The translations under genes and the position numbers were made by a program. The notes under the pieces were generated by a model. It was not told the origin of the DNA. It saw nothing but the letters and a program-made list of their open reading frames with translations, and made no database searches. From NCBI RefSeq assembly GCF_044647545.1, contig NZ_CP172818.1: DNA of 64,000 nt; one strand, 5' to 3'. Position 1 is the stretch's first letter. Each line of letters starts with the position of its first letter. This document shows, one piece after another, positions 15,521 through 54,474 of this stretch. Source of the DNA: Escherichia coli. Lineage in GTDB: Bacteria; Pseudomonadota; Gammaproteobacteria; Enterobacterales; Enterobacteriaceae.

Positions 15521-16582
15521 TTATTCTTGCGCGATTTGCCCATCGGGCCAGGCGTGAATCACGGCTTTGATCAGCGTCGCCAATGGAATGGCGAAGAATA
15601 CGCCCCAGAATCCCCACAAACCACCGAAGATCACCACCGATAAAATAATCACCAGCGGATGCAGGTTAACCGCTTCGGAGAACAACACCGGCACTAGCAG
15701 GTTGCCGTCCAGCGCCTGAATGATCAGATACACCGCGAAGCAGCTCCAGAATTCCGTGCCAGCACCAAACTGGAATAGCGCCACGCCAATCACCGGAATG
15801 GTCACCACAAATGCGCCAATGTACGGAATAAGAACCGAGAAGCCGACCAGCACCGCCAGCAGCAGCGAATAGTTCAGCCCGAAGAGTAAGAACCCCAGCC
15901 AGGTGGCGATCCCCACCACGATCATCTCCAGCACTTTGCCGCGGATATAGTTGGTGATTTGTTGATTCATCTCCTTCCACACCTGTCCTGCCAGTCCGCG
16001 GTTACGCGGTAGCACCCGACGAACGGCGTTCAGCATCTGCTCTTTGTCTTTCAGCAGGAAGAAGACCATCAATGGCACCAGCACCAGATAGACAGCTATG
16101 GTGAGCAAACCGACCAGCGAGGCGAGGGAAATTTTCACCACCGAATCGCCCATGGTCAGCATCCGACTGCGCATATTTTCGGCCATTGCATCAATAATGC
16201 CCGCGTCCATTAACGCCGGATAGCGGCGCGGCAACGTGGCGGCAAAGTCAGAAAGCTTATTGAGCATCCCCGGCATATCGCGAATTAAGTAGATGCCCTG
16301 CTGCCAGGCGATAGGCAATACCACGAACGCCATCAGTAGCAATATACCGACGAAAACCACCAATACAATCGACGTCGCCCAGCGGCGGGAGCAGCCAATA
16401 GATTGCAGGCGCACGGTTGGCCATTCCAGCAAATAGGCCAGCACAATAGCCACCAGCAACGGAGCAAGCAGGCCACTAAAGAAAAAGATAATGCCAAATC
16501 CGGCAACTAAAATAACCAGCAAGGCAATCGCTTCCGGGTCGCTAAAACGGCGGCGATACCATTGCATCAACATTTCGAGCAT
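15521..16582 (-). CDS. perM: AI-2E family inner-membrane transporter/permease
   Basis: 353-aa polytopic ORF (yfgO). Confidence 0.88.
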   Translation of the reverse strand: MLEMLMQWYRRRFSDPEAIALLVILVAGFGIIFFFSGLLAPLLVAIVLAYLLEWPTVRLQSIGCSRRWATSIVLVVFVGILLLMAFVVLPIAWQQGIYLIRDMPGMLNKLSDFAATLPRRYPALMDAGIIDAMAENMRSRMLTMGDSVVKISLASLVGLLTIAVYLVLVPLMVFFLLKDKEQMLNAVRRVLPRNRGLAGQVWKEMNQQITNYIRGKVLEMIVVGIATWLGFLLFGLNYSLLLAVLVGFSVLIPYIGAFVVTIPVIGVALFQFGAGTEFWSCFAVYLIIQALDGNLLVPVLFSEAVNLHPLVIILSVVIFGGLWGFWGVFFAIPLATLIKAVIHAWPDGQIAQE

Positions 16583-16734
16583 AAAGACCTTCCCTGAACC
16601 TCAAGAGCGGGATTGCGATCCGCAATTGTATCGAAATGTCACAAAAAAGACTTCGCTTTTTATGACGGATTCAGGAAACTGAAAAGTCATTTGAGTGGGC
16701 TAATCTTCGCCGTTACACTCAAAGGCGGCGCGGT

Positions 16735-21541: not shown

Positions 21542-21785
21542 ACTCTTTCTCCTTTGAGGGGCAGCCACAAAAAAATCGACGGATTATACCTCCTTTCTTC
21601 AAGGCGGCAATATTATTTTCGTTGACTTTAGTCAAAATGATAACGGTTTGAGATAAAGTTATTTTGTATTCAAATGGTTATGGAAGAAGATTATTCCATC
21701 CGAAAACGATCCTTTGCCCTGGTACAAGTATTCTTTTGCCGCGCGCCTGGGGAAAAGACGTGCAAAAAGGTTGTGTAAAGCAGTC

Positions 21786-23711: not shown

Positions 23712-27324
<3,613 letters not shown>

Positions 27325-27330
27325 TGCTTT

Positions 27331-27360
27331 GCGGGCCGACGAGAAATGTCGGCCCGCATT
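27331..27360. terminator. Bidirectional hairpin terminator between ppx and pdeF
   Basis: gcgggccgac-gagaaat-gtcggcccgc followed by attatt; convergent genes. Confidence 0.6.
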
Positions 27361-27362
27361 AT

Positions 27363-29606
27363 TCAGGCACTTTCGCGAATGGGTTCGATTTCATTCAGCG
27401 TATCAATTAACGGTTGCGGCTTACCAATAAGATAACCCTGCATATAATCGATCCCCAAAGAGAACACCGCCTCGCGGATCTCTTCGTTTTCAACGTACTC
27501 TGCCACTACCCGCATTTTCTTCATTCGCGCCAGGTGGCAAATCGACGCCACTATCTGATAATCCAGACTATTTGACACAATATTGCGGATAAAACTGCCG
27601 TCAATTTTAAGCAAATCGGCATTCACATTTTTAAGCCGCGCATAGCTGGCATAGCCGGTGCCGAAATCATCAATCGCAATCTGGCAGCCTAATTCCTGAA
27701 GATGCTGCAAGGTGATTTGCGCCTGCTTAACATTTGTCAGAGCATTACTTTCGGTGACTTCAAAAATAAGTTGCCACGCTTCAATTTGATATTTAGCCAG
27801 CAGCTGACTGACTTCAACGGGAAAACGAGCCTGACATACCGAGGTTGGCGACAGATTAATCGCAAAACGGTGAGCGGGCATCTTCGCTCTGTTTTCAGCC
27901 ATAAATTGCAGCGTATGCTCAATGACCCACATGTCGATACTCGACGATAAACCAAATTCGTGCGCGACCGGCAAGAAGCTGTCGGGGCTGATCAGTTCAT
28001 CATTCTCACCTTTCATGCGCAGAAGAATTTCATGGTAAACATCACCACGCATACCGGTAATCGGCTGGGCCATCAGGAAAAAATGGTTGTGTTCCAGCGC
28101 CTGCTGTAGCCGATTCATCATCGCGACTTTATCTTTCAATTCGCGTTGCAAATACATTGCCCCGCGACGCTGCATATTTTCCGGGGCGTTGGTCACGATG
28201 GAAAGCTCGGCGACCGTATTTAGCTCTCCCAGCAGCAGGTAGATATGATTCACTGGCGAGCGCACATAGCAGTAACTGACGCCAATCTGCGGTTGCATCG
28301 GCATTCCATCCCAAAAGAAACGAAATTGCTTGAGATGGCTATCCAGTGCGGTAATGCGCTCCTGGTGCGATTCTGTATTCAGTCGCAGCGCGAGATCGTT
28401 ACCCGAAAGCTGATAAACATCTTCACCCGGTTCCAGCAAGGGTGACAGCCAGTGAGAAAGTTTTTGCTTGTATTGAATCCGTAGCATGATGCCATAGTTC
28501 TTAACCAGCATTTCCATGCCAGGGATGCGTAAATAACAAAGCGCAGACCAGGGGGCATCACGCAACGCGCGATTCAGGGCGCGAACATTTGGCAGATGAA
28601 CCACCGGGTCCACATACGCAAGCCGCTGAATGCGTCTGACTACCGCTCTCTGACGGGTTGCCAGTACAGCCATATAATTGACAATAAAAGAGAATACCAG
28701 ATAACTGGAGGAGGTTATGGTCAGCTGCGTGGTATAGCCAGGATAAATGGGAATGTAATTTTGATAGCTGTGGATGCTGATCATCAACACGACCGCCCAG
28801 AGCAGCGAAATCAGCTTATAACCATAGCGCATCGCTCCCCACATCATCAGGGGCAGCAATAATGACAAGGTATAGTTGGTGCTAAAAATTGTGCTTTTTT
28901 CATTTAACGGCATGCATAACAGCAGCAGTAAAGCACCTAATGCCAGTAGCCAGAGTGCGAACTCTTTTTTGGTGACTTTGACATCAACCTGCTGTTTTAA
29001 TTGCGAATAATAACTACGTAAATAAAACGGATTTCGCACTACACGAATGATGAAGTAGCACAGCGGGACACCAATCAGATTGCCCACCAGTAAGGCCTGA
29101 TAATTGATTAAGGTCCCGAGGTTAAAAGGCATGACGCCGACCAGATTTTCTCTGCTCGCCAGTAATCCTACAAACGCAGCAAACTGGAAAAGTATCAGAA
29201 ACAGCGTTGCAGGAAACACAATCTGCCAGAATATACGCTGGGAAATTAAACGGGTATCACCATGTGAAACGTTGTTACGCCGGGGAGTAAAGACCCTGTA
29301 ACCGCCCCAACAGAGAATGATAATGATAATAAAATTAGCCGTTAATGAGAGCGTTTCGTAAAAACCCAGCTCTGCATATTTGCGGACAAAAATCCCTAAG
29401 GCGATCCCTGGCAATGCCGCCCAGCTGAAAAACATCATCATGCTGATCATCAGAGCCAGAGGCAGATAAAAGAGAAAAACCTCACCGGAAGAAATATGCG
29501 CGAAAGTATTAATGTGGGCGAAAATGGGCAAGATTAAAGAAGGCAGGAACAGCGGAAGCCCCCACCATTTATCACGTATTTTTATATAAGTTGCATTCAG
29601 TTTCAT
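27363..29606 (-). CDS. pdeF: Membrane-anchored c-di-GMP phosphodiesterase (MASE1 - degenerate GGDEF - EAL)
   Basis: 747 aa; N-terminal polytopic domain; EAL-type region with EIL variant (YHEILLRM) and downstream catalytic residues; yfgF. Confidence 0.88.
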   Translation of the reverse strand: MKLNATYIKIRDKWWGLPLFLPSLILPIFAHINTFAHISSGEVFLFYLPLALMISMMMFFSWAALPGIALGIFVRKYAELGFYETLSLTANFIIIIILCWGGYRVFTPRRNNVSHGDTRLISQRIFWQIVFPATLFLILFQFAAFVGLLASRENLVGVMPFNLGTLINYQALLVGNLIGVPLCYFIIRVVRNPFYLRSYYSQLKQQVDVKVTKKEFALWLLALGALLLLLCMPLNEKSTIFSTNYTLSLLLPLMMWGAMRYGYKLISLLWAVVLMISIHSYQNYIPIYPGYTTQLTITSSSYLVFSFIVNYMAVLATRQRAVVRRIQRLAYVDPVVHLPNVRALNRALRDAPWSALCYLRIPGMEMLVKNYGIMLRIQYKQKLSHWLSPLLEPGEDVYQLSGNDLALRLNTESHQERITALDSHLKQFRFFWDGMPMQPQIGVSYCYVRSPVNHIYLLLGELNTVAELSIVTNAPENMQRRGAMYLQRELKDKVAMMNRLQQALEHNHFFLMAQPITGMRGDVYHEILLRMKGENDELISPDSFLPVAHEFGLSSSIDMWVIEHTLQFMAENRAKMPAHRFAINLSPTSVCQARFPVEVSQLLAKYQIEAWQLIFEVTESNALTNVKQAQITLQHLQELGCQIAIDDFGTGYASYARLKNVNADLLKIDGSFIRNIVSNSLDYQIVASICHLARMKKMRVVAEYVENEEIREAVFSLGIDYMQGYLIGKPQPLIDTLNEIEPIRESA

Positions 29607-29957
29607 AGATGCTCAGCAGAATCCCCCACATCCTGAAGGAGGTGTATTCAGACAGGCATCCCACCTGACTTCGAATGATGATTATTCATCACTATAGAGA
29701 GCATTGATTCTAAGTGTCATATGAAAGTTCCAATTGATATATATCAAACAAAATAACCCTGATTAATGAATTATTACGTTTATCATGTTAATTCATCATT
29801 ATTACATCATCATTGTAAATAATTAAATTAACTTCCATAACATTAAAATATGTATCCACTGACGCTTTTTTACATAACGAAGAATTGACCATTTTGTCCT
29901 GTTGTGCCTTAATGTAAGTACCGTCCACAGCGTGGGACATACTTCAAGGAACCTTTT

Positions 29958-30149
29958 GTGAGTCAGGCAACCAGTATGCGAAAACGACACCGATTTAACA
30001 GTCGCATGACCCGTATCGTACTGCTCATCAGCTTTATCTTCTTCTTTGGCCGTTTTATCTACTCGTCCGTCGGTGCATGGCAGCACCATCAGAGCAAAAA
30101 AGAAGCTCAGCAATCCACACTCTCCGTCGAATCACCGGTACAACGTTAG
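29958..30149 (+). CDS. yfgG: Small membrane protein YfgG
   Basis: 63-aa ORF with one hydrophobic helix (IVLLISFIFFFGRFIY), flanked by AT-rich DNA. Confidence 0.7.
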   Translation: MSQATSMRKRHRFNSRMTRIVLLISFIFFFGRFIYSSVGAWQHHQSKKEAQQSTLSVESPVQR

Positions 30150-30459
30150 CGGTTACCTTCTCCACTTTCACAGGACATAACGGCACCTCGCTGTCGGATG
30201 CTTTTGCTCTTTGGGATTATCAAAGCGGCAGATATTCTTTCATCTTAAATTTTACGTCTTTGTCCTGACTGATGTTTATCCTGTTTGGCTGCGAAATAAA
30301 TATAAAATTAATACATATGTTTTAATGATGTATTTTTATAAATTATTTTCCACATGAATTTTAATAAATTTAATCTATTCCTTTATACGCAATACATTTA
30401 CTTTCCTCTTTTGATGATCTTAAATGTCTTATTTTTCGTAATGTGTATAACAAGGAATA

Positions 30460-30978
30460 GTGATGAAATTTAAAAAATGTCTTCTGCCTGTGGCAATGTT
30501 AGCGTCATTCACTCTGGCAGGATGCCAGTCAAATGCTGATGATCATGCCGCCGATGTTTATCAAACCGATCAACTGAATACCAAACAAGAAACTAAAACC
30601 GTTAATATTATTTCCATTCTTCCCGCAAAAGTTGCCGTAGACAACTCCCAAAATAAACGAAACGCACAAGCCTTCGGCGCGCTTATTGGTGCAGTCGCTG
30701 GCGGTGTAATCGGCCACAACGTGGGGTCTGGCAGCAATTCCGGAACGACGGCAGGTGCAGTTGGCGGCGGAGCTGTTGGCGCGGCAGCGGGTTCTATGGT
30801 GAATGATAAAACCTTAGTGGAAGGTGTTTCTCTAACGTATAAGGAAGGCACCAAAGTGTATACCTCCACCCAGGTGGGTAAAGAGTGCCAGTTTACGACA
30901 GGTTTAGCCGTTGTTATTACCACGACGTATAACGAAACGCGTATTCAGCCAAATACCAAATGTCCTGAAAAGAGCTAA
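30460..30978 (+). CDS. yfgH: Outer-membrane lipoprotein with glycine-zipper motif
   Basis: 172 aa; lipobox LAGCQ; Gly/Ala-rich GALIGAVAGGVIGHNVGSG... segment. Confidence 0.85.
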   Translation: MMKFKKCLLPVAMLASFTLAGCQSNADDHAADVYQTDQLNTKQETKTVNIISILPAKVAVDNSQNKRNAQAFGALIGAVAGGVIGHNVGSGSNSGTTAGAVGGGAVGAAAGSMVNDKTLVEGVSLTYKEGTKVYTSTQVGKECQFTTGLAVVITTTYNETRIQPNTKCPEKS

Positions 30979-30993
30979 TAATCAGGAGGAGTC

Positions 30994-31533
30994 ATGAAGA
31001 AAGTTTTTCTTTGCGCCATCTTAGCCTCCTTTAGCTATCCGGCTATCGCCTCATCATTGCAGGATCAACTCTCGGCTGTCGCAGAAGCGGAACAGCAAGG
31101 TAAAAATGAAGAGCAAAGGCAGCATGACGAATGGGTCGCGGAGCGCAACAGGGAAATCCAGCAAGAGAAGCAACGTCGCGCAAACGCCCAGGCCGCGGCT
31201 AATAAAAGAGCGGCAACGGCAGCGGCAAATAAGAAAGCTCGTCAGGATAAACTGGACGCCGAAGCCACTGCGGACAAAAAACGCGATCAAAGTTATGAAG
31301 ATGAGCTACGCAGCTTAGAGATTCAGAAACAAAAACTGGCACTGGCGAAAGAAGAAGCCCGCGTTAAGCGCGAAAACGAATTTATCGATCAGGAACTGAA
31401 GCACAAAGCTGCGCAAACCGATGTGGTGCAATCTGAAGCTGACGCAAACAGAAATATGACTGAAGGCGGTCGCGATCTGATGAAAAGCGTGGGCAAAGCA
31501 GAAGAGAACAAATCGGACAGCTGGTTTAATTAA
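30994..31533 (+). CDS. yfgI: Secreted/periplasmic coiled-coil, charged protein YfgI
   Basis: 179 aa; signal peptide; highly charged K/E/Q/A-rich. Confidence 0.8.
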   Translation: MKKVFLCAILASFSYPAIASSLQDQLSAVAEAEQQGKNEEQRQHDEWVAERNREIQQEKQRRANAQAAANKRAATAAANKKARQDKLDAEATADKKRDQSYEDELRSLEIQKQKLALAKEEARVKRENEFIDQELKHKAAQTDVVQSEADANRNMTEGGRDLMKSVGKAEENKSDSWFN

Positions 31534-31570
31534 TCGATGTAAGTAACTTCAAGCCTATAATTCTTGAAGA

Positions 31571-31603
31571 TAAAAAACCCTCTGTAGTAACAGAGGGTTT
31601 TGT
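31571..31603. terminator. Bidirectional terminator between yfgI and guaA
   Basis: aaaaaaccctctg-tagtaa-cagagggtttt hairpin with flanking A- and T-runs. Confidence 0.7.
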
Positions 31604-31627
31604 TCATTCATAGTGCAGGGATCAAAA

Positions 31628-33205
31628 TCATTCCCACTCAATGGTAGCTGGCGGCTTGCCGCTGATGTCATACACCACGCGGGAAATACCGTTCACTTCA
31701 TTGATAATGCGGTTGGAAACGCGACCGAGGAAATCGTACGGCAGATGCGCCCAGTGTGCGGTCATAAAGTCGATGGTTTCGACAGCACGCAGAGAGACAA
31801 CCCAGTCATACTTACGACCATCGCCCATTACGCCAACGGAACGTACCGGCAGGAAGACGGTGAACGCCTGGCTGACTTTGTCGTACAGGTCCGCTTTACG
31901 CAGTTCTTCAATGAAGATGGCGTCAGCACGGCGCAGCAGGTCACAATACTCTTTCTTCACTTCACCCAGAACACGAACGCCAAGGCCTGGTCCCGGGAAC
32001 GGGTGACGGTACAGCATGTCGTACGGCAGGCCCAGCTCCAGACCAATCTTACGCACTTCGTCTTTGAACAGCTCTTTCAGCGGTTCAACCAGGCCCATCT
32101 TCATCTCTTTCGGCAGGCCGCCCACGTTGTGGTGAGATTTGATGACATGTGCTTTACCGGTTGCAGAAGCAGCAGATTCGATAACGTCAGGGTAGATAGT
32201 GCCCTGCGCCAGCCACTTCACGTCTTCCAGTTTCAGTGCTTCTTCATCGAATACTTCAACGAAAACGCGACCGATGATTTTACGTTTTGCTTCCGGATCG
32301 TTTTCGCCAGCCAGCGCTGACAGGAAGCGATCTTCTGCCGGTACGTGAACAATGTTCAGACCAAAGTGATCGCCAAACATATCCAGAACCTGCTCTGCTT
32401 CGTTGAGACGCAGCAGGCCGTTGTCGACGAATACGCAAGTCAGGTTTTTACCGATAGCGCGGTGCAGCAGCATTGCGGTTACGGAGGAATCCACACCACC
32501 AGAGAGGCCGAGGATGACTTTATCGTCGCCTACCTGCTCGCGGATGCGAGCTACAGCATCGTCGATAATTTTCGCTGGCGTCCACAGGGCTTCACACTGG
32601 CAGATATCACGCACAAAACGCTCCAGCATGCGCATACCCTGGCGAGTGTGAGTCACTTCCGGGTGGAACTGTACGCCATAGAAGCGTTTTTCTTCGTTAG
32701 CCATGATGGCGAACGGGCAGCTTTCGGTGCTGGCTACGGTGATGAAGTCGGACGGGATAGCGGTAACTTTATCGCCGTGGCTCATCCAGACATCGAGCAG
32801 AGGTTTACCGTCTGCTGTCAGAGCATCTTCGATACCGCGAACCAGTGCGCTGTCGTTTACGACTTCAACCTGCGCATAGCCAAATTCACGTTCGTTAGAG
32901 GCTTCAACATGACCACCCAACTGCATTGCCATGGTCTGCATACCATAGCAAACGCCGAATACCGGTACGCCTGCTTCAAAGACATACTGCGGCGCACGCG
33001 GGCTGTTTTCTTCGGTGGTGCTTTCCGGGCCGCCGGAAAGAATAATGCCGCTTGGATTGAAGTCACGAATTTGTGCTTCTGTCACATCCCACGCCCACAG
33101 TTCGCAGTAAACACCCAGTTCACGCACGCGGCGCGCAACCAGTTGGGTGTACTGAGAACCGAAGTCCAGAATGAGGATGCGATGCTTATGAATGTTTTCC
33201 GTCAT
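31628..33205 (-). CDS. guaA: GMP synthase (glutamine-hydrolysing)
   Basis: 525 aa; GATase N-terminus, PP-loop SGGVDSSV. Confidence 0.95.
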
Positions 33206-33273
33206 TGACGCTTATTCCGAGGCAAGTGAAACAGATAATATAAATCGCCCGACATGAAGTCGGGCGAAGAGAA

Positions 33274-34740
33274 TCAGGAGCCCAGACGGTAGTTCGGGGA
33301 CTCTTTAGTAATGGTCACGTCGTGAACGTGGCTTTCCTGAATGCCCGCACCGCTGATACGTACAAACTCCGCTTTAGTACGCAGTTCGTCGATAGTACCA
33401 CAGCCGGTCAGGCCCATACAGGAGCGCAGGCCGCCCATCTGCTGGTGAATGATCTCTTTCAGGCGACCTTTATAGGCCACGCGACCTTCGATACCTTCCG
33501 GCACCAGTTTGTCGGCAGCGTTGTCGCTCTGGAAGTAACGGTCAGAAGAACCTTTGGACATCGCGCCCAGAGAGCCCATCCCACGGTAAGACTTGTAAGA
33601 ACGGCCCTGGTAGAGCTCGATTTCACCTGGGGATTCTTCAGTACCCGCCAGCATGGAACCTACCATCACCGCGCTTGCACCAGCAGCGATAGCTTTGGCG
33701 ATATCGCCAGAGAAACGAATACCACCGTCAGCGATAACCGGAATCCCGGTGCCTTCCAGGGCTTCTACTGCGTCAGCAACGGCGGTGATCTGCGGAACAC
33801 CTACGCCAGTCACGATACGCGTCGTACAGATAGAGCCAGGGCCGATACCGACTTTAACCGCGCTGCAACCAGCTTCTGCCAGAGCGCGTGCCCCCGCAGC
33901 TGTTGCCACGTTGCCGCCGATGATTTGCAGATCCGGATATTTAGCACGAGTTTCACGGATACGCTGCAGAACGCCTTCAGAGTGACCGTGAGAGGAGTCG
34001 ATCAGCAGAACGTCAACGCCTGCGGCAACCAGCGCGTCGACACGCTCTTCGTTACCAGCGCCAGCGCCAACCGCTGCACCAACACGCAGACGGCCTTGCT
34101 CGTCTTTACAGGCGTTCGGTTTACGTTCCGCTTTCTGGAAGTCTTTCACAGTGATCATGCCGATCAGGTGGAATTCGTCATCAACCACCAGCGCCTTTTC
34201 AACGCGTTTTTCGTGCATTTTTGCCAGCACCACTTCACGGGCTTCGCCTTCACGCACGGTTACCAGACGCTCTTTCGGCGTCATGTAAACGCTAACCGGT
34301 TGATTCAGATCGGTCACAAAACGCACGTCACGACCGGTGATGATGCCGACCAGTTCGTTTTCTTCGGTAACCACCGGGTAACCCGCAAAGCCGTTACGTT
34401 CAGTCAGTTCTTTCACTTCACGCAGGGTGGTTGTCGGCAGCACGGTCTGCGGATCAGTTACCACGCCAGATTCGTGTTTTTTCACACGGCGAACTTCTTC
34501 TGCCTGGCGTTCAATGGACATGTTTTTGTGGATAAAGCCGATACCGCCTTCCTGAGCCAGAGCAATAGCCAGGCGCGCTTCCGTTACGGTATCCATTGCT
34601 GCGGAAAGCATAGGGATATTCAGACGAATAGTTTTCGTCAGCTGGGTGCTGAGGTCAGCAGTATTCGGCAGAACGGTAGAATGAGCAGGAACGAGGAGAA
34701 CGTCGTCAAACGTCAGAGCTTCTTTAGCGATACGTAGCAT
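33274..34740 (-). CDS. guaB: IMP dehydrogenase
   Basis: 488 aa from ATG at 34740 ([19 protein letters not shown]...); catalytic loop [11 protein letters not shown]; CBS domains. Confidence 0.95.
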
Positions 34741-45103: not shown

Positions 45104-45535
45104 TTAACGGGTGCGCGGGCACACTTCGCCTTCGCCGAAGAAATAAGCGATTTCGCGAGCGGCAGATTCGACGGAATCAGAACCGTGGGTACCATTTTCG
45201 GTCAGGCTGTCAGCGTAATCAGCACGCAGAGTACCGGCCAGTGCGTTTGCCGGATTGGTCGCGCCCAGCAGATCGCGGTGACGCTGAACAGCATTTTCAC
45301 CTTCCAGCACGGAAACAACGATCGGGCCAGAAGTCATGAATTCAACCAGACCATCAAAGAACGGTTTTCCATCGTGTTCAGCATAAAAGCCACGAGCCTG
45401 TTCAACGGTCAGGTGCAGCATTTTGGTGCCGACAATTTTGAACCCTGCAGCTTCAAAGCGCGCAAAGATACTACCAATCACGTTTTTTGCTACCGCGTTC
45501 GGTTTGATGATGGAAAAAGTACGTTCAATAGCCAT
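45104..45535 (-). CDS. ndk: Nucleoside diphosphate kinase
   Basis: 143 aa; active-site NGTHGSDS. Confidence 0.95.
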
Positions 45536-45683
45536 TTTTACCTCTGTAAATTGTTCTGTTGTTGTCTGTACCAGCGTACGAGATGGCGCGGATTATAATG
45601 AGCAACAGAGCCGTTGACTATTGATGAAGGTAACATTTTTTTAAAATAAACCCAGTTTAAGCAACAATCAGGGGCAAAACAGA

Positions 45684-47996
45684 CTATTGCATGACAAATT
45701 TCACTGTCGCTATTTGCCCCACCTCATCCATCACCAGCAATTGATAATCGCCTTTATCCGTCAAATGCAGGGTCACGTTGCGCCCACGTTCAGTTAACGG
45801 TTCGCCGTTCAGAAACCACCAGCGTTCACCTGCCCCTCCACTTGATTGTAACGGCAAAGTCGCTTCCGCTGCGCCCGGTAAACGTTTAATAATCGCGCCA
45901 TCGCGCACACCTGTTAGCTGCAGCGGGAGTTGTGCATCGTGACCGTATGGCGGGCAAATTGTCGAGGCCGGTGGCAAGCGCACAGCGCGACGTTCTGATG
46001 CGGGCAGCCAGGGTTCCAGCGGTAGCGGCCAGACATTTATCATTTCTTGTCGCGCCTGAGGGCAATCAGCGGCAACACGTTTGCCGTTTTCATCCAGCCA
46101 GATGGGGAAACGAATGCCATTAATGCCTTCCTGCTCCGGCAGTAATAGAGTTGGCGGCTGACTCCCGTCCAGCAGCCAGGTTGCCAGGCGGCGGCGACAG
46201 TTACTGTCACCTTCCGGCAAAGACTGTCCGCCCGGCCAGCAGATAACGCCACGACTTACAGAGTCAGGACGTGGGTCTTCCGGCAGATTCGCACTGCGCG
46301 ACAGTAAGATATTATTGACCTGATTCAACAATGGTACGGCGCTGGCAAAGCCAAACTGACCAACAACGGGCGTGCCGTCCGGTCTGCCAGTCCAGATCCC
46401 AATGACATAGCGAGCGTTAACCCCAATCGCCCAGGCATCACGATAGCCATAGCTGGTGCCCGTTTTCCATGCCAGTGGGGCGACGCGCGGCAAGGCACCA
46501 TCCGGCAAGGGTTGCGCTTCATCAGCCATAATCCGGCGAATGATCCACGCAGCCCCCGACGACATTAAAGGCCGTTCAAGCAGCGGATCATCAGGCTGTA
46601 AGCGCAATTTACCTGCCTTGCCGTGGCGAGCAAACGCGGTATACGCTGCCGCCATATTTTCCAGTTTTGCACCAGCGCCGCCGAGAATGAGCGAAAGATT
46701 CGGCGCAGCACCGTTGGGCAAATATAACGGCAATCCAGCATTGCGTAACTTTGCCGCAAACCGTTTCGGTCCATAGGCTTCCAGCACCTGCACAGCAGGT
46801 AAGTTCAGCGATCGCACCAGCGCCTCACTCATGCTGATCGGCCCATGAAAACCGCTGTCAAAGTTGCCAGGTCGGTAATCACCGGTGCGTCGGGGGACGT
46901 CTTGCAACAGCGATGCCGGGTGGATCAAGCCTTCATCCAGCGCCAGACCATAAACAAACGGTTTGAGCACCGATCCTGGCGATCGGATCGCATTGACCAT
47001 ATCAACATGACCAAAGCGTGAATCATCGTTGAGATCAACCGATCCCACCCAGCCGCGAACACGCATATCGGTATGATCAACCACGATCATCGCCAGTGAG
47101 CTGCGCGGTGGCAATCGTCCTTTCCAGTTTTGCGCCAGTTCTTCCAGACGTCGTTGAAGACCGGCATCCAGCGTAGTAACGATTTTGTCGCTTTTGCTTT
47201 TACCGAGCATCATGCGCGAAAACAGCGGTGCCAGTTGCGGCATTTGTCGGGGTGCCAGCCAGATGGGTTCTTCCCTTGACTCTTTTACCTGCTCACGGGA
47301 CCACACACCTTGCACGGCCATCCTTTCGAGCACTTTATTACGCGCGGCTTCGGCACGTTCCGGCCAGCGATCCGGGCGCAGTCGGCTGGGCGCTTGCGGC
47401 AACACCGCCAGCATTGCCGCCTCGGAATAGCTTAAATTCGCAGGCGATTTTCCGAGATAAGCCCAACTTGCCGCACCGATCCCCTGCAACGTACCGCCAA
47501 ACGGAGCGCGGTTAAGATACAAGGTCAGAATTTCACGCTTAGACAGATGCCACTCCAGTTGCAACGCGCGCCAGAGCTGGCGAATTTTGCCGCCAAATGT
47601 TTTGGGGTGAGGATCAAGCAGACGAGCAACCTGCATAGTGAGCGTGCTGCCACCGGAAATAACCCTTCCCGAAGTGAGATCTTGCCATGCTGCGCGCGCC
47701 ACCGAGAATGGATTCACCCCCGGATGCTTCCAGAACCAGCGATCTTCATAATTGATCAGCGCTTCAAGGTAACGTGGAGAAACATCTTCGATTGTTACCG
47801 GATAACGCCAGATGCCTTCCGCATCGGCAAAGCGCCAGAGCGGCGTCCCATCCTGCGCCACAACCACTCGTGCGGGATTGACTTCATGCAGCGGTAGAGG
47901 CCAGAGTTTATCTGCTCCCCACGCTGCAAGAAAAAGGAGAAATGGCGCAGCTGCCAGCGTTATCCAGCAGCCGCGTTTGGTTAACAAGCGAGGCAT
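45684..47996 (-). CDS. pbpC: Penicillin-binding protein 1C (glycosyltransferase/transpeptidase-like)
   Basis: 770 aa; N-terminal TM; GT51 and transpeptidase regions; directly downstream of yfhM. Confidence 0.92.
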   Translation of the reverse strand: MPRLLTKRGCWITLAAAPFLLFLAAWGADKLWPLPLHEVNPARVVVAQDGTPLWRFADAEGIWRYPVTIEDVSPRYLEALINYEDRWFWKHPGVNPFSVARAAWQDLTSGRVISGGSTLTMQVARLLDPHPKTFGGKIRQLWRALQLEWHLSKREILTLYLNRAPFGGTLQGIGAASWAYLGKSPANLSYSEAAMLAVLPQAPSRLRPDRWPERAEAARNKVLERMAVQGVWSREQVKESREEPIWLAPRQMPQLAPLFSRMMLGKSKSDKIVTTLDAGLQRRLEELAQNWKGRLPPRSSLAMIVVDHTDMRVRGWVGSVDLNDDSRFGHVDMVNAIRSPGSVLKPFVYGLALDEGLIHPASLLQDVPRRTGDYRPGNFDSGFHGPISMSEALVRSLNLPAVQVLEAYGPKRFAAKLRNAGLPLYLPNGAAPNLSLILGGAGAKLENMAAAYTAFARHGKAGKLRLQPDDPLLERPLMSSGAAWIIRRIMADEAQPLPDGALPRVAPLAWKTGTSYGYRDAWAIGVNARYVIGIWTGRPDGTPVVGQFGFASAVPLLNQVNNILLSRSANLPEDPRPDSVSRGVICWPGGQSLPEGDSNCRRRLATWLLDGSQPPTLLLPEQEGINGIRFPIWLDENGKRVAADCPQARQEMINVWPLPLEPWLPASERRAVRLPPASTICPPYGHDAQLPLQLTGVRDGAIIKRLPGAAEATLPLQSSGGAGERWWFLNGEPLTERGRNVTLHLTDKGDYQLLVMDEVGQIATVKFVMQ

Positions 47997-52955: not shown

Positions 52956-53161
52956 TTTTCATCCCTGCCACAATGGCCCGTTAGCAACGTCGAATAATTA
53001 TTATGCGTGAGAATTTACGTTATGTAATTCAGTATCACGCCCATACAATCCGAATTTTAGTGAGAATTGTGGCTCAGACAGCCAAATCAGCCTCTTTTGC
53101 TTGTCGCTTTTCACTAAACATCCGACAATTTAGCCTAACCCCGGCAAAAATGGAGATGCCT

Positions 53162-54007
53162 ATGTCCACGACATGGTTTGTAGGAGCCGACTGGCTCGCC
53201 GAACATATTGATGACCCGGAAATTCAGATTATCGATGCCCGCATGGCGTCGCCTGGACAGGAAGATCGTAACGTTGCTCAGGAGTATCTGAATGGACATA
53301 TTCCCGGCGCAGTGTTTTTTGATATCGAAGCGCTTTCTGATCACACTTCCCCGCTTCCGCACATGCTGCCGCGCCCGGAAACGTTCGCCGTGGCGATGCG
53401 TGAGTTAGGCGTTAACCAGGATAAGCACCTGATTGTCTATGACGAAGGTAATCTTTTCTCAGCCCCACGAGCATGGTGGATGCTGCGCACCTTTGGTGTA
53501 GAGAAAGTGTCGATTCTGGGGGGTGGACTTGCAGGCTGGCAGCGCGATGTTCTGCTGTTAGAAGAAGGTGCAGTAGAGCTGCCGGAAGGAGAGTTTAACG
53601 CCACGTTTAATCCTGAAGCCGTGGTGAAAGTCACCGATGTGTTATTGGCAAGCCATGAAAATACGGCGCAAATTATTGATGCCCGCCCGGCTGCACGTTT
53701 TAACGCAGAAGTTGATGAACCTCGCCCAGGTTTACGTCGCGGACATATTCCCGGTGCATTGAACGTTCCGTGGACGGAACTGGTGCGCGAAGGCGAATTA
53801 AAAACGACCGATGAACTGGATGCGATATTTTTTGGTCGCGGCGTCAGCTATGACAAACCGATTATCGTCAGCTGCGGCTCTGGTGTAACGGCAGCCGTGG
53901 TTTTGTTGGCACTCGCGACGCTGGATGTGCCAAACGTGAAACTGTACGACGGCGCATGGAGTGAATGGGGCGCACGGGCAGATTTACCGGTTGAGCCATT
54001 GAAATAA
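53162..54007 (+). CDS. sseA: 3-mercaptopyruvate sulfurtransferase (tandem rhodanese)
   Basis: 281 aa from ATG 53162 (MSTTWFVGADWLAEH...); catalytic Cys in CGSGVTA. Confidence 0.92.
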   Translation: MSTTWFVGADWLAEHIDDPEIQIIDARMASPGQEDRNVAQEYLNGHIPGAVFFDIEALSDHTSPLPHMLPRPETFAVAMRELGVNQDKHLIVYDEGNLFSAPRAWWMLRTFGVEKVSILGGGLAGWQRDVLLLEEGAVELPEGEFNATFNPEAVVKVTDVLLASHENTAQIIDARPAARFNAEVDEPRPGLRRGHIPGALNVPWTELVREGELKTTDELDAIFFGRGVSYDKPIIVSCGSGVTAAVVLLALATLDVPNVKLYDGAWSEWGARADLPVEPLK

Positions 54008-54051: not shown

Positions 54052-54294
54052 ATTGCTGGTCTGTTCCCTCAATATACCAAACACCCACGACACAAACTCC
54101 TAACCTCTTTCAACAAAAAATTTCTTTATTATATCCACTGCGGCCCTTTCCGCCAACTTAAAAAATGTTCGGTAATAAAATAACCTGGCTTATTAGTCCG
54201 AATTCGGACAAATATAAACAAATCAGCTCAATATTAAAAATACTAATCGGTAAAAGATATTACTTAAACGTGTAAATTCACTTTCTTTAAACAA

Positions 54295-54325
54295 CAAAAA
54301 ACCGCCAAAATCAGGCGGTTTTTTG
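54295..54325. repeat. Second copy of the A-run/hairpin/T-run element (terminator-like)
   Basis: aaaaaaccgcc-aaaatcag-ggcggtttttt followed by gttgctggt, as after copy 1. Confidence 0.6.
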
Positions 54326-54474
54326 TTGCTGGTTTGGTTCGCGGCCTTTCCAGCAGATTGGCTTGTGTTGCATGAGCAACGCAGGTGCTTCACAGCAAAG
54401 CAATACTCGCCAGTAACTCTCTTTTTGTCAAGCGAAAGAGAGTAATCATTGTTTATTTAGCGTATTATCGACAC

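Follow-up and report, generated by a model that had tools for sequence, protein, structure and literature searches.

Two AT-rich tracts flanking yfgG of Escherichia coli share one H-NS-bound domain and probably differ in origin and function

The window analyzed here, a 64-kb stretch of Escherichia coli DNA (64,000 nt), contains the ppx–pdeF–yfgG–yfgH–yfgI–guaA region, in which the small gene yfgG is bracketed by two intergenic spacers with AT-rich tracts. Both tracts are ordinary gene-control intergenic DNA and lie inside one extended H-NS-bound domain running from pdeF to yfgI; their origins and functions are not the same. Spacer 1 (29607-29957), about 350 bp long, serves two divergent genes as an ancient control region and is conserved in 35 Enterobacteriaceae species. 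Spacer 2 (30150-30459) consists of the yfgG 3′ UTR and, beyond it, AT-rich DNA upstream of the accessory genes yfgHI. For this explanation as a whole, i.e., regulatory intergenic regions within an H-NS domain, with their FNR, Nac, promoter and Rho parts, we estimate a probability of roughly 80%.

In effect, this ordinary region was already known, and it contains no new kind of element. Each binding event is already found in published genome-wide tables, which no single paper combines. The occupancies of H-NS, FNR, Nac, sigma70 and sigmaS described below come from published data that we mapped onto the window, as do the consequences of hns/stpA deletion for pdeF and of Nac induction for yfgG, the 3′ end and the Rho zone. 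The practical value of this exercise is annotation: it gives exact coordinates to a class II FNR promoter, a Nac site, a sigma70/sigmaS promoter, a 3′ end, a Rho zone and an H-NS domain around yfgG, a gene required for nickel and cobalt tolerance. It also illustrates how two similar-looking AT-rich tracts have different histories, one being an ancient control region with conserved composition and the other the edge of a mobile two-gene cassette.

Composition and gene content

An earlier reading of this DNA from sequence only had described both spacers as AT-rich far beyond their surroundings, and the windowed GC content agrees. Across 29607-30460, GC is 0.363, compared with 0.522 for the whole window, and it drops to 0.322 and 0.226 in the two segments singled out by that reading (29640-29950 and 30270-30455, respectively). 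At 100-, 150- and 200-bp resolution alike, the two deepest GC minima of the 64 kb fall in these spacers, with 100-bp minima of 0.18 in spacer 1 and 0.14 in spacer 2 (window mean, 0.522; SD, 0.063). The corresponding 50 kb of MG1655 has 18 intergenic regions of 40 bp or more (mean GC, 0.418); among them the same two spacers rank lowest, with 100-bp minima of 0.17 and 0.18, and the next one is 0.22.

The AT-rich parts do not fill the whole of the spacers, with core GC values of 0.230 (29700-29860) and 0.217 (30280-30440). Near-normal composition is seen in the pdeF 5′ UTR (29607-29700; GC about 0.5), in the yfgG promoter plus 5′ UTR (29883-29957; about 0.49) and in the yfgG 3′ UTR (30150-30245). 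The placement of a 63-aa yfgG between pdeF and yfgH was correct as well, and all three gene calls were confirmed:

27363-29606, minus strand: pdeF (yfgF)
29958-30149, plus strand: yfgG, 63 aa, DUF2633
30460-30978, plus strand: yfgH

A divergent control region between pdeF and yfgG

The elements of spacer 1, from the pdeF side to the yfgG side, are as follows.

29607-29700, minus strand: pdeF 5′ UTR, about 94 nt, its probable transcription start site (TSS) being placed by the FNR box at -41.5 and the -10 TAGAAT
29707-29712, minus strand: pdeF -10 hexamer TAGAAT, from the sequence and the literature assignment (PMC3718329)
29734-29747, no strand: FNR box TTGATATATATCAA, a perfect consensus centered at -41.5; pdeF is class II FNR-activated
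29748-29882, no strand: AT-rich core, upstream DNA common to both divergent promoters, with the Nac site and a T-tract adjoining the yfgG -35
29837-29851, no strand: putative Nac (LysR-type) site ATAACATTAAAATAT, ATA-N9-TAT, centered about -76 from the yfgG TSS
29885-29913, plus strand: yfgG promoter, with -35 TTGACC (29885-29890), a 17-nt spacer and extended -10 TGcCTTAAT (hexamer 29908-29913)
29920-29957, plus strand: yfgG 5′ UTR, with a short conserved hairpin (CGCCC..GGG), Shine-Dalgarno (SD) sequence AAGGAA and GTG start (alignment; TSS from PMC4447067)

On the pdeF side, the FNR box is the sole perfect match in the 64 kb and keeps a fixed distance from the pdeF ATG in 34/35 species. The TAGAAT at 29712-29707, which puts the pdeF TSS at about 29700, sits within a GATTYTARKT block, the core positions of which do not vary among 20 species. 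As cited in PMC3718329, Lacey 2010 assigned yfgF/pdeF a class II FNR promoter with this very -10, and both PMC3718329 and PMC3688515 credit Lacey et al. 2010 with FNR activation of yfgF. An FNR ChIP-seq/chip peak at yfgF/yfgG was reported by Myers 2013, who also list the exact box sequence (Tables S5 and S6; PMC3688515). The position of the box, the -10, FNR binding in vivo and the published FNR-dependent anaerobic expression are all those expected where FNR acts in the class II mode. From its box at 29734-29747, centered at -41.5, FNR activates pdeF on the minus strand, with TAGAAT as the -10.

Downstream of this promoter, alignments show that the sequence of the pdeF 5′ UTR is kept across genera (GGAUGCCUG plus a CAGGA motif). 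The UTR can be drawn as two short hairpins about 28 nt apart with a GGA in each loop (CAGG-UGGGAUG-CCUG and ACCC-..CAGGA..-GGGU), which is a CsrA dimer layout. Were this stretch (29607-29700, minus strand) an undescribed post-transcriptional control element bound by CsrA, it would tie the Csr system to an anaerobic c-di-GMP phosphodiesterase. We consider this unlikely: the MFE z-score is -0.56, RNAalifold retained a single 5-bp hairpin, and the two-hairpin model gives 79.6% paired cells versus 78.5% in shuffles. Covariation is weak, its score being reached by 35/500 shuffles, and yfgF was not found in the accessible part of the supplementary tables of a CsrA integrated-transcriptomics paper. 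A separate candidate in the same UTR, a three-codon upstream ORF (AUG CCU GUC UGA), was discarded since its AUG is AUA in three genera.

On the yfgG side, AATTGACC of the promoter is invariant in 20 species, and TGTGCCTTAATGT is invariant except at three positions; identical hexamers are given in Shimada 2014 (PMC3946193). A sigma70 ChIP-seq peak at 2627279 in a published table (height, 11932) maps to about 29924 and is among the strongest of the neighborhood, while a sigmaS ChIP-seq peak with its TSS at 2627275 (PMC4447067) maps to 29920. On the plus strand, the extended -10 promoter TTGACC-17-TGcCTTAAT, used by sigma70 and sigmaS, drives yfgG from a TSS at 29920.

This promoter responds to induced Nac. 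The Nac ChIP-seq summit at 2627183 (U00096.2; PMC5217608) maps to about 29828, and upon Nac induction yfgG went from 0 to 137 (138-fold), values that reflect induced (over)expression of Nac (PMC5217608). The ATA-N9-TAT motif occurs just 3 times in the 64 kb, and in the copy at 29837-29851 the ATAA...AT positions are invariant across 20 species. An upstream ATA-N9-TAT, Nac ChIP and Nac-dependent induction of yfgG are what one finds at Nac-activated sigma70 promoters, suggesting that Nac, bound at this conserved site, would switch yfgG on. Of the sites compared by eye with the conserved islands, those of Zur, NikR, RcnR, Fur, CpxR and OmpR did not fit, and the Nac ATA-N9-TAT did.

The AT-rich core of spacer 1 is shared upstream DNA that bears these sites. 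Its mean column identity across 20 species (0.64) is the lowest of the spacer's four parts; its GC ranges from 0.24 to 0.36 (mean, 0.29) in the same species. The core contains 8.9 -10-like hexamers per 100 bp, versus 1.9 in the window, and underlies an H-NS genomic SELEX site as well as an H-NS ChIP-chip region.

A different role for such DNA would be that of upstream activating sequences as known from rRNA promoters, with the tracts being mainly Fis-bound or intrinsically curved and boosting yfgG and yfgH, not silencing them. The conserved T-tract TTTTTTACAT (29866-29875), located just upstream of the yfgG -35 like an UP element, would suit this idea, and so would the strong sigma70 peak of yfgG. 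In a wedge model, the curvature predicted for 30346-30466 in spacer 2 lies far out in the tail of the window's values (ratio, 0.828; mean, 0.959; SD, 0.028); the same model, however, predicts spacer 1 to be average and uncurved (0.935 to 0.96). The Fis consensus (G-N3-W7-N3-C / GNNYAWWWWWTRNNC) has no match in either spacer. Moreover, yfgH is expressed at a low level that does not depend on Nac, and spacer 2 has no sigma70 peak among the peaks listed. We consider it improbable that the tracts act mainly in this way. Of what had been proposed from the sequence alone, curved DNA is retained as a prediction for 30346-30466 but not for spacer 1, and Fis binding finds no support in the consensus scan.

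The yfgG 3′ UTR and the upstream region of yfgHI

Spacer 2 is part of a variable segment and comprises three elements.

30150-31570, plus strand: variable accessory segment (spacer 2, yfgH and yfgI), from the yfgG stop codon to the guaA terminator
30150-30241, plus strand: yfgG 3′ UTR, ending at a weak hairpin (30203-30233) followed by AUAUUCUUUC
30246-30395, no strand: AT-rich core, the distal upstream region of yfgHI, H-NS-covered, with the Rho zone for yfgG read-through and the second Nac peak
30396-30462, plus strand: promoter-proximal part, with the putative yfgHI promoter (TTTACT, 30398-30403; 17-nt spacer; TTAAAT, 30421-30426) and the SD sequence AAGGA

Among 37 loci, the yfgHI cassette is confined to Escherichia and C. 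amalonaticus. In species where guaA directly follows yfgG, homology breaks off at the stop codon of yfgG and is picked up again at the terminator (about 31572-31601). The cassette is also present on about 196 small plasmids, and the GC3 of yfgH is 0.42, compared with 0.52-0.59 in neighboring genes. From this lineage-restricted and plasmid-borne distribution, yfgHI appears to be an accessory cassette. Loss of yfgHI in other genera, instead of gain in Escherichia, could also account for the distribution.

Transcripts of yfgG end within spacer 2. A Term-seq 3′ end at 2629573 (U00096.3; PMC7815308) maps to 30241, 92 nt past the yfgG stop codon, and the hairpin preceding it has a predicted energy of -12.5 kcal/mol (z-score, -1.7). 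A bicyclomycin-sensitive Rho termination region with its peak at 2629689 (score, 8.5; p = 1e-48; PMC7815308) maps to 30357. Over most of 29950-30250 and 30300-30450, the GC skew is -0.16 to -0.33 (C > G on the plus strand); a published Rho region together with such C-rich, G-poor skew is the picture of a Rho-dependent terminator. H-NS coating and this termination zone would keep yfgG transcription out of yfgHI, which would give spacer 2 an insulating role.

Within spacer 2, a conserved proximal block adjoins the fast-evolving AT core: the promoter-proximal part shows 97-100% identity within E. coli, and the core just 75-79% between divergent E. coli lineages. Escherichia species and C. amalonaticus share TTTACTTT and TAACAAGGA.TAGT.ATGAA without any change, and on plasmids the cassette shows the same arrangement (TTTACT-N17-AAAAAT). 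Such conservation is consistent with yfgHI having its own weak promoter, TTTACT-17-TTAAAT, and the true start of yfgH is probably the ATG at 30463. The supplementary tables of the Cappable-seq data gave no match for the coordinates of a yfgH TSS. A second Nac peak (2627520-2627856) has its summit at about 30350, and the core contains an ATA-N9-TAT motif at 30364-30378; expression of yfgH is low and unchanged by Nac (PMC5217608). AT-rich DNA can yield functionless ChIP peaks, of which this Nac peak is an example.

The tracts had also been thought capable of hiding small RNAs, and this found no backing. That the spacers conceal an unannotated small RNA or small protein gene is in our view very improbable, although there are two candidates to consider. 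One is a 50-aa ORF called by PGAP in spacer 1 (29788-29940, minus strand; hypothetical protein WP_000017552.1), and the minus strand also has several promoter-like sites, which are not above shuffles (4 found versus 4.9 expected). In most of 18 non-E. coli sequences, the ORF has lost its start or has stops in frame, 9/50 of its residues vary among lineages of E. coli, and Pfam gave no match. The other is an RNA derived from the yfgG 3′ UTR and ending at 30241, where the Term-seq 3′ end is listed as an 'orphan'; its hairpin is weak and without a proper U-tail, and this is the only terminator-like site. More generally, an Rfam search at E<=10 over 27000-33500 gave chance-level eukaryotic matches only, and MG1655 carries no ncRNA or small ORF annotation at either spacer. 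The mapped 3′ ends are only those of the yfgG transcript, and the cores are poorly conserved. A repeat search in the spacers returned just short, low-significance repeats and an unconserved palindrome.

The H-NS domain and its relation to known systems

Both AT-rich tracts are covered by H-NS, as had been anticipated from their composition. Genomic SELEX placed an H-NS site in the yfgF/yfgG spacer (PMC3946193), and ChIP-chip found one enriched region over both spacers, extending over 2.1 kb under anaerobic and 4.6 kb under aerobic conditions (PMC3688515, Table S3). The anaerobic region (2626274-2628408) maps to about 28919-31053 of the window, and the aerobic one (2624400-2628963) to about 27045-31608. 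Table S6 of Myers gives nucleoid proteins at the FNR site as 'None', yet the H-NS region in Table S3 covers that site (PMC3688515).

The consequence for pdeF is visible in an hns stpA mutant, in which the FNR ChIP signal increases about 5-fold at the pdeF promoter, from 0.35 to 1.68. Anaerobic induction of pdeF in the medium of Myers was likewise seen only in the absence of H-NS and StpA, amounting to 4.3-fold in the mutant (O2-dependent ratio, 0.23; PMC3688515). We suggest that the AT-rich core of spacer 1 attracts H-NS/StpA, which would lower FNR occupancy and mask the anaerobic induction of pdeF.

The sequence-only reading had suggested that yfgG and yfgH could be under silencing or environmental control. 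Such control does hold for pdeF, as judged by the hns stpA effect, whereas yfgG, with its strong sigma70 peak and Nac activation, is regulated and not silenced. The strong yfgG sigma70 peak sits within the H-NS domain; H-NS is therefore not a plain off switch for the region. Silencing of yfgG and yfgH by H-NS is something that one may infer, and for the yfgHI cassette H-NS would presumably act in this manner. Horizontal acquisition fits spacer 2, with its lineage-restricted, plasmid-borne cassette, and not spacer 1, which is ancestral and conserved in 35 species.

One might ask whether the AT-richness has any function of its own. It could result from relaxed selection and AT-biased mutation, in spacer 2 also from a foreign cassette composition, with H-NS and Nac ChIP signals being passive. 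In both spacers, conservation is indeed lowest in the AT core, the Nac peak at yfgH leaves expression unchanged, and yfgHI on plasmids works with an upstream region that is far less AT-rich. Matches to the H-NS high-affinity 10-mer (tCGATAAATT-like), of which each spacer has two with <=2 mismatches, are not above composition-matched shuffles (mean, 0.9). On the other hand, the low GC of the spacer 1 core and the spacer length of about 350 bp are maintained across genera whose locus GC ranges from 0.45 to 0.58, the core contains invariant islands, and removal of H-NS plus StpA alters both FNR occupancy and pdeF regulation. We thus regard a mere by-product as rather unlikely and favor regulatory intergenic DNA within an H-NS domain. 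As a further thought, the two AT tracts, bound by H-NS and Nac and separated by about 500 bp, could be bridged into a loop around yfgG, an idea we hold to be weaker than that of a CsrA-bound pdeF 5′ UTR.

How do these elements compare with known systems? With class II FNR promoters (TTGAT-N4-ATCAA at -41.5, as at yfiD, narG and the published yfgF), the pdeF promoter shares the perfect box, the right distance to TAGAAT, FNR binding in vivo and conservation across Enterobacteriaceae. There is no difference; it is the same yfgF/pdeF promoter that was already described. The canonical position of a Nac site is -64. Like the Nac-activated sigma70 promoters of hutU, putP and gabD, that of yfgG has ATA-N9-TAT beneath a Nac summit and upstream of the sigma70 promoter, and the gene is induced; unlike them, its site would lie near -76, not -64, and a second Nac peak before yfgHI is without effect.

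The masking of pdeF resembles that of FNR sites in extended H-NS regions (Myers et al. 2013, 'silent' or dampened; classic cases are proU, bgl and hlyE). Common to both are AT-rich DNA, an H-NS ChIP-chip region of >1 kb, and higher FNR occupancy together with anaerobic regulation revealed by deletion of hns and stpA. In contrast to those sites, FNR is bound here in the wild type, and the site is not fully silent. The embedded yfgG promoter is strongly occupied by sigma70, and spacer 1 is ancestral, not horizontally acquired.

For spacer 2, the closest relative is the co-operative termination by H-NS and Rho in AT-rich acquired DNA. Reportedly, as put forward by Peters et al. 2012, H-NS and Rho co-operate in termination within AT-rich, horizontally acquired DNA. 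Spacer 2 similarly combines a bicyclomycin-sensitive region with an H-NS-bound, AT-rich C > G tract at the edge of an accessory cassette, which makes a share of H-NS in Rho termination at this site a candidate parallel.

The AT-rich spacers and their H-NS domain

The region containing yfgG is nearly universal in E. coli, matching 5,424/5,426 complete genomes at 95-100% identity, with the order ppx / pdeF (yfgF) / yfgG / yfgH / yfgI / guaA. Its main features, in window positions, are as follows.

27363-29606, minus: pdeF (yfgF), MASE1 and EAL domains
29607-29957: spacer 1, between the divergent pdeF and yfgG
29958-30149, plus: yfgG, 63 aa, DUF2633; "Ni/Co stress response protein" in the MG1655 annotation
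30150-30459: spacer 2, yfgG to yfgH
30453-30457, plus: yfgH Shine-Dalgarno (SD) sequence AAGGA
30460-30978, plus: yfgH, glycine-zipper lipoprotein
30994-31533, plus: yfgI, DUF5384
31572-31601: AAAAAACCCTCTGTAGTAACAGAGGGTTTT, a perfect hairpin with A and T runs on either side, between the convergent yfgI and guaA

The AT-rich tracts that the sequence-only reading had seen around yfgG are real: against a window GC of 0.522, spacer 1 has 0.342 and spacer 2 has 0.306, and together they hold the two lowest GC minima of the 64 kb at 100-, 150-, and 200-bp resolution (100-bp minima 0.18 and 0.14, respectively; standard deviation across 100-bp windows, 0.063). The corresponding 50 kb of MG1655 contains 18 intergenic regions of 40 bp or more (mean GC 0.418), and the two spacers have the lowest 100-bp minima of them all (0.17 and 0.18; next 0.22), so their AT-richness is extreme even among noncoding DNA. 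The AT-rich parts are nonetheless narrower than the spacers, with cores at 29700-29860 (GC 0.230) and 30280-30440 (GC 0.217), since GC is close to normal in the UTR and promoter segments bordering them. Elsewhere in the window, 100-bp GC falls below 0.30 only at 1697-1860, 21594-21711, and 54147-54331 (minima 0.26, 0.28, and 0.23).

Published coordinates were converted to window positions by subtracting 2,597,355 (U00096.2) or 2,599,332 (U00096.3). The suggestion that H-NS binds here is borne out by an H-NS gSELEX site within the yfgF/yfgG spacer (Shimada 2014, PMC3946193) and by H-NS ChIP-chip regions at 2626274-2628408 anaerobically and 2624400-2628963 aerobically (Myers 2013, PMC3688515, Table S3). 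These map to ~28919-31053 and ~27045-31608, and thus a single extended H-NS domain covers pdeF (its 5′ part or all of it), both spacers, yfgG, yfgH, and yfgI. The covered block has a GC of 0.450 versus 0.527 for the remaining window. Matches to the H-NS 10-mer in the spacers did not exceed composition-matched shuffles, and binding is therefore best explained by general AT content. The companion idea of Fis binding was not supported.

The silencing idea is supported for pdeF. In the wild type, yfgF is an FNR-bound operon without FNR-dependent expression change (Table S9, PMC3688515); in an hns stpA mutant, FNR ChIP-chip at yfgF/yfgG gives a signal of 1.68 instead of 0.35 (Table S7), and only there does yfgF show a +O2/-O2 ratio of 0.23 (Table S11). 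We conclude that H-NS/StpA dampen FNR action at pdeF. For this FNR site, Table S6 of the same study has the nucleoid-protein entry "None", which conflicts with the H-NS region of Table S3 and the signal of Table S7. Unlike pdeF, yfgG has strong sigma70 occupancy, and its wild-type level is 2.2-fold higher under anaerobic conditions (Table S12).

The density of -10-like hexamers in the AT cores is ~5x that of the window. H-NS suppresses spurious transcription initiation, and this density would fit such a role. A Rho termination region at 2626899, antisense to pdeF, maps to 27567 on the plus strand (Rho score 8.8; Adams 2021, PMC7815308), implying antisense transcription across pdeF within the H-NS domain.

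A conserved divergent control region between pdeF and yfgG

Spacer 1 serves two divergent genes as a control region of ancient origin. Among 37 Enterobacteriaceae loci encoding YfgG relatives, ppx-pdeF with a divergent yfgG was found wherever contig extent permits, separated by 312-366 bp (mostly ~350 bp), and 34/35 species have a TTGAY-N4-RTCAA box at ~130 nt from the ATG of pdeF. In a 20-species alignment, the following conserved elements are interspersed with variable AT-rich DNA.

29607-29700, minus: pdeF 5′ UTR
minus: GATTYTARKT, the pdeF -10 (TAGAAT/TAAAAT)
29734-29747: FNR box
islands: TGTAAATA, TT..ATAACA, and TTTTTACAT
blocks: AATTGACC, invariant, and TGTGCCTTAATGT, near-invariant
plus, at yfgG: short hairpin, SD AAGGAA, and GTG start

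The core at 29748-29882 has a GC of 0.24-0.36 in 20/20 species but a mean column identity of just 0.64, the lowest among four parts of the spacer; its composition is thus better conserved than its sequence. In E. coli LCP22S3_I2 (NZ_CM149864.1), an IS5 sits at a CTAA target (29710-29713) between the pdeF -10 and the FNR box; the insertion is expected to separate pdeF from FNR control in this strain.

The FNR box is the sole perfect TTGAT-N4-ATCAA in the window. It is the box that PMC3718329, citing Lacey 2010, describes at -41.5 of the class II yfgF promoter with -10 TAGAAT, and Myers et al. (PMC3688515) give both an FNR ChIP peak for yfgF/yfgG and the exact box sequence. On the yfgG side, RpoD holoenzyme binds spacer 1, with the yfgG promoter given as TTGACC-17-CTTAAT (PMC3946193). 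The published yfgG transcription start site (TSS), 2627275, converts via U00096.2 to 29920, exactly 7 nt past the -10 hexamer; a published sigma70 ChIP-seq peak (height 11932) maps to ~29924, and the sigmaS ChIP-seq region 2627100-2627399 bears the same TSS (PMC4447067). Here TGcCTTAAT is invariant. We take this sequence to be an extended -10 whose -13 position is C, an arrangement that would suit sigma70 and sigmaS alike.

Expression of Nac raises yfgG from 0 to 137 (138-fold), making it the top induced gene after nac itself (Aquino et al. 2017, PMC5217608). The Nac ChIP-seq summit, 2627183, maps to ~29828, nine bases from ATAACATTAAAATAT (29837-29851), whose ATAA...AT positions are invariant in 20/20 species. 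This sequence carries an ATA-N9-TAT motif, which we take to be the Nac/LysR consensus; of its three occurrences in the 64 kb, two fall in the two spacers. Further regulators are represented by a gSELEX site for the LysR-type PgrR in spacer 1 and by yfgF in a published supplementary table of OmpR targets. Experimental evolution of gallium-resistant E. coli is the subject of PMC6928379, whose abstract also names yfgG.

Spacer 2 at the edge of the yfgHI cassette

Within the fetched loci, only Escherichia (E. coli, E. albertii, and one further species) and C. amalonaticus have yfgH and yfgI; in the remaining genera, guaA or unrelated genes lie downstream of yfgG. Where guaA directly follows yfgG, homology to E. 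coli ends at the yfgG stop codon and restarts at the hairpin AAAAAACCCTCTGTAGTAACAGAGGGTTTT, so that 30150 to ~31570 is a variable insert. The hairpin is conserved in genera where yfgG faces guaA directly across it and is probably a bidirectional terminator. A yfgH-yfgI pair (76% and 62% aa identity) is carried by small mobilizable ColRNAI plasmids of ~7.5 kb, and ~196 E. coli/Salmonella plasmid records hold a YfgH homologue at 60-80% identity; on the plasmid examined (NZ_CP073991.1), a phosphoethanolamine transferase gene and an IS1 precede the pair. The GC3 of yfgH is 0.42 versus 0.52-0.59 in neighbouring genes, and a published study found yfgH/yfgI orthologues present in S. Typhi and absent from S. 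Typhimurium. Spacer 2 is thus the edge of an accessory cassette.

In FDAARGOS_497 (NZ_CP033850.1, 5454-7501), which is 100% identical to window 29300-30800, prophage lysis genes (holins, endolysin, spanin) follow yfgI in place of guaA. Given this and the differing cargo in other genera, the yfgG-guaA interval looks like an integration hot spot.

The initial 92 nt of spacer 2 form the yfgG 3′ UTR, whose Term-seq end (2629573) maps to 30241, past a weak hairpin. A published Rho termination region follows, peaking at 2629689 (30357; Rho score 8.5, p = 1e-48), where the plus strand has a C>G skew. Nac ChIP-seq has its other peak here (2627520-2627856, summit ~30350), beside ATAAATTTAATCTAT (30364-30378); Nac induction leaves yfgH expression unchanged (25.4 vs 26.1; PMC5217608). 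Sequence change is rapid in the AT core at 30246-30395 (75-79% identity among divergent E. coli lineages), which includes an imperfect palindrome at 30298-30335 with 23-nt overlapping arms (AAATATAAAATTAATACATATGT / ACATATGTTTTAATGATGTATTT), retained only in close E. coli relatives.

The final 67 bp, 97-100% identical among E. coli lineages, hold the invariant TTTACTTT, the SD, and the start codon. Because of this conservation, and because the plasmid yfgHI copy has the identical layout (TTTACT-N17-AAAAAT), we propose TTTACT (30398) -17- TTAAAT (30421) as the putative yfgHI promoter. Annotation starts yfgH at GTG 30460, a codon that is GTA in C. amalonaticus; the ATG after it is kept in that species, which makes ATG 30463 the probable true start.

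Curved DNA, suggested for both tracts, was predicted only beside yfgH: a wedge model gave strong curvature within the spacers solely at 30346-30466 (ratio 0.828; mean 0.959, sd 0.028), and spacer 1 was not predicted to be curved. The model places the most curved DNA of the window at 53016-53196, 45426-45716, and 16546-16706 (end-to-end ratios 0.72-0.83), where curvature is stronger than in either spacer.

Proposed hidden transcripts and the pdeF leader

The idea that the spacers hide small RNAs found no backing: an Rfam search of the region returned no credible match, the MG1655 annotation places its sRNAs elsewhere in the neighbourhood and none in the spacers, and promoter-like sites in the spacers were not above shuffles. 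A 50-aa ORF (WP_000017552.1; 29788-29940, minus), antisense to the yfgG promoter, is RefSeq/PGAP-annotated in many E. coli genomes and not in MG1655. Its start is lost or stops intervene in most non-E. coli sequences, and 9/50 residues differ between E. coli lineages; judging by sequence, it is probably a spurious call.

Two stretches of the pdeF 5′ UTR show strong conservation, GGAUGCCUG.CUGAA and another with a second GGA (CAGGA); the two GGA motifs lie ~28 nt apart in loops of short hairpins with weak covariation. yfgF had no match in the searched supplements of a CsrA transcriptomics study. This arrangement resembles a dual CsrA site and is a weak lead, the sole one towards something new. 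Otherwise, spacer 1 is a conserved divergent control region for FNR, Nac, and sigma70/sigmaS, and spacer 2 is the upstream flank, probably insulated by H-NS and Rho, of a mobile yfgHI cassette; every component is of a known kind and already present in published datasets.
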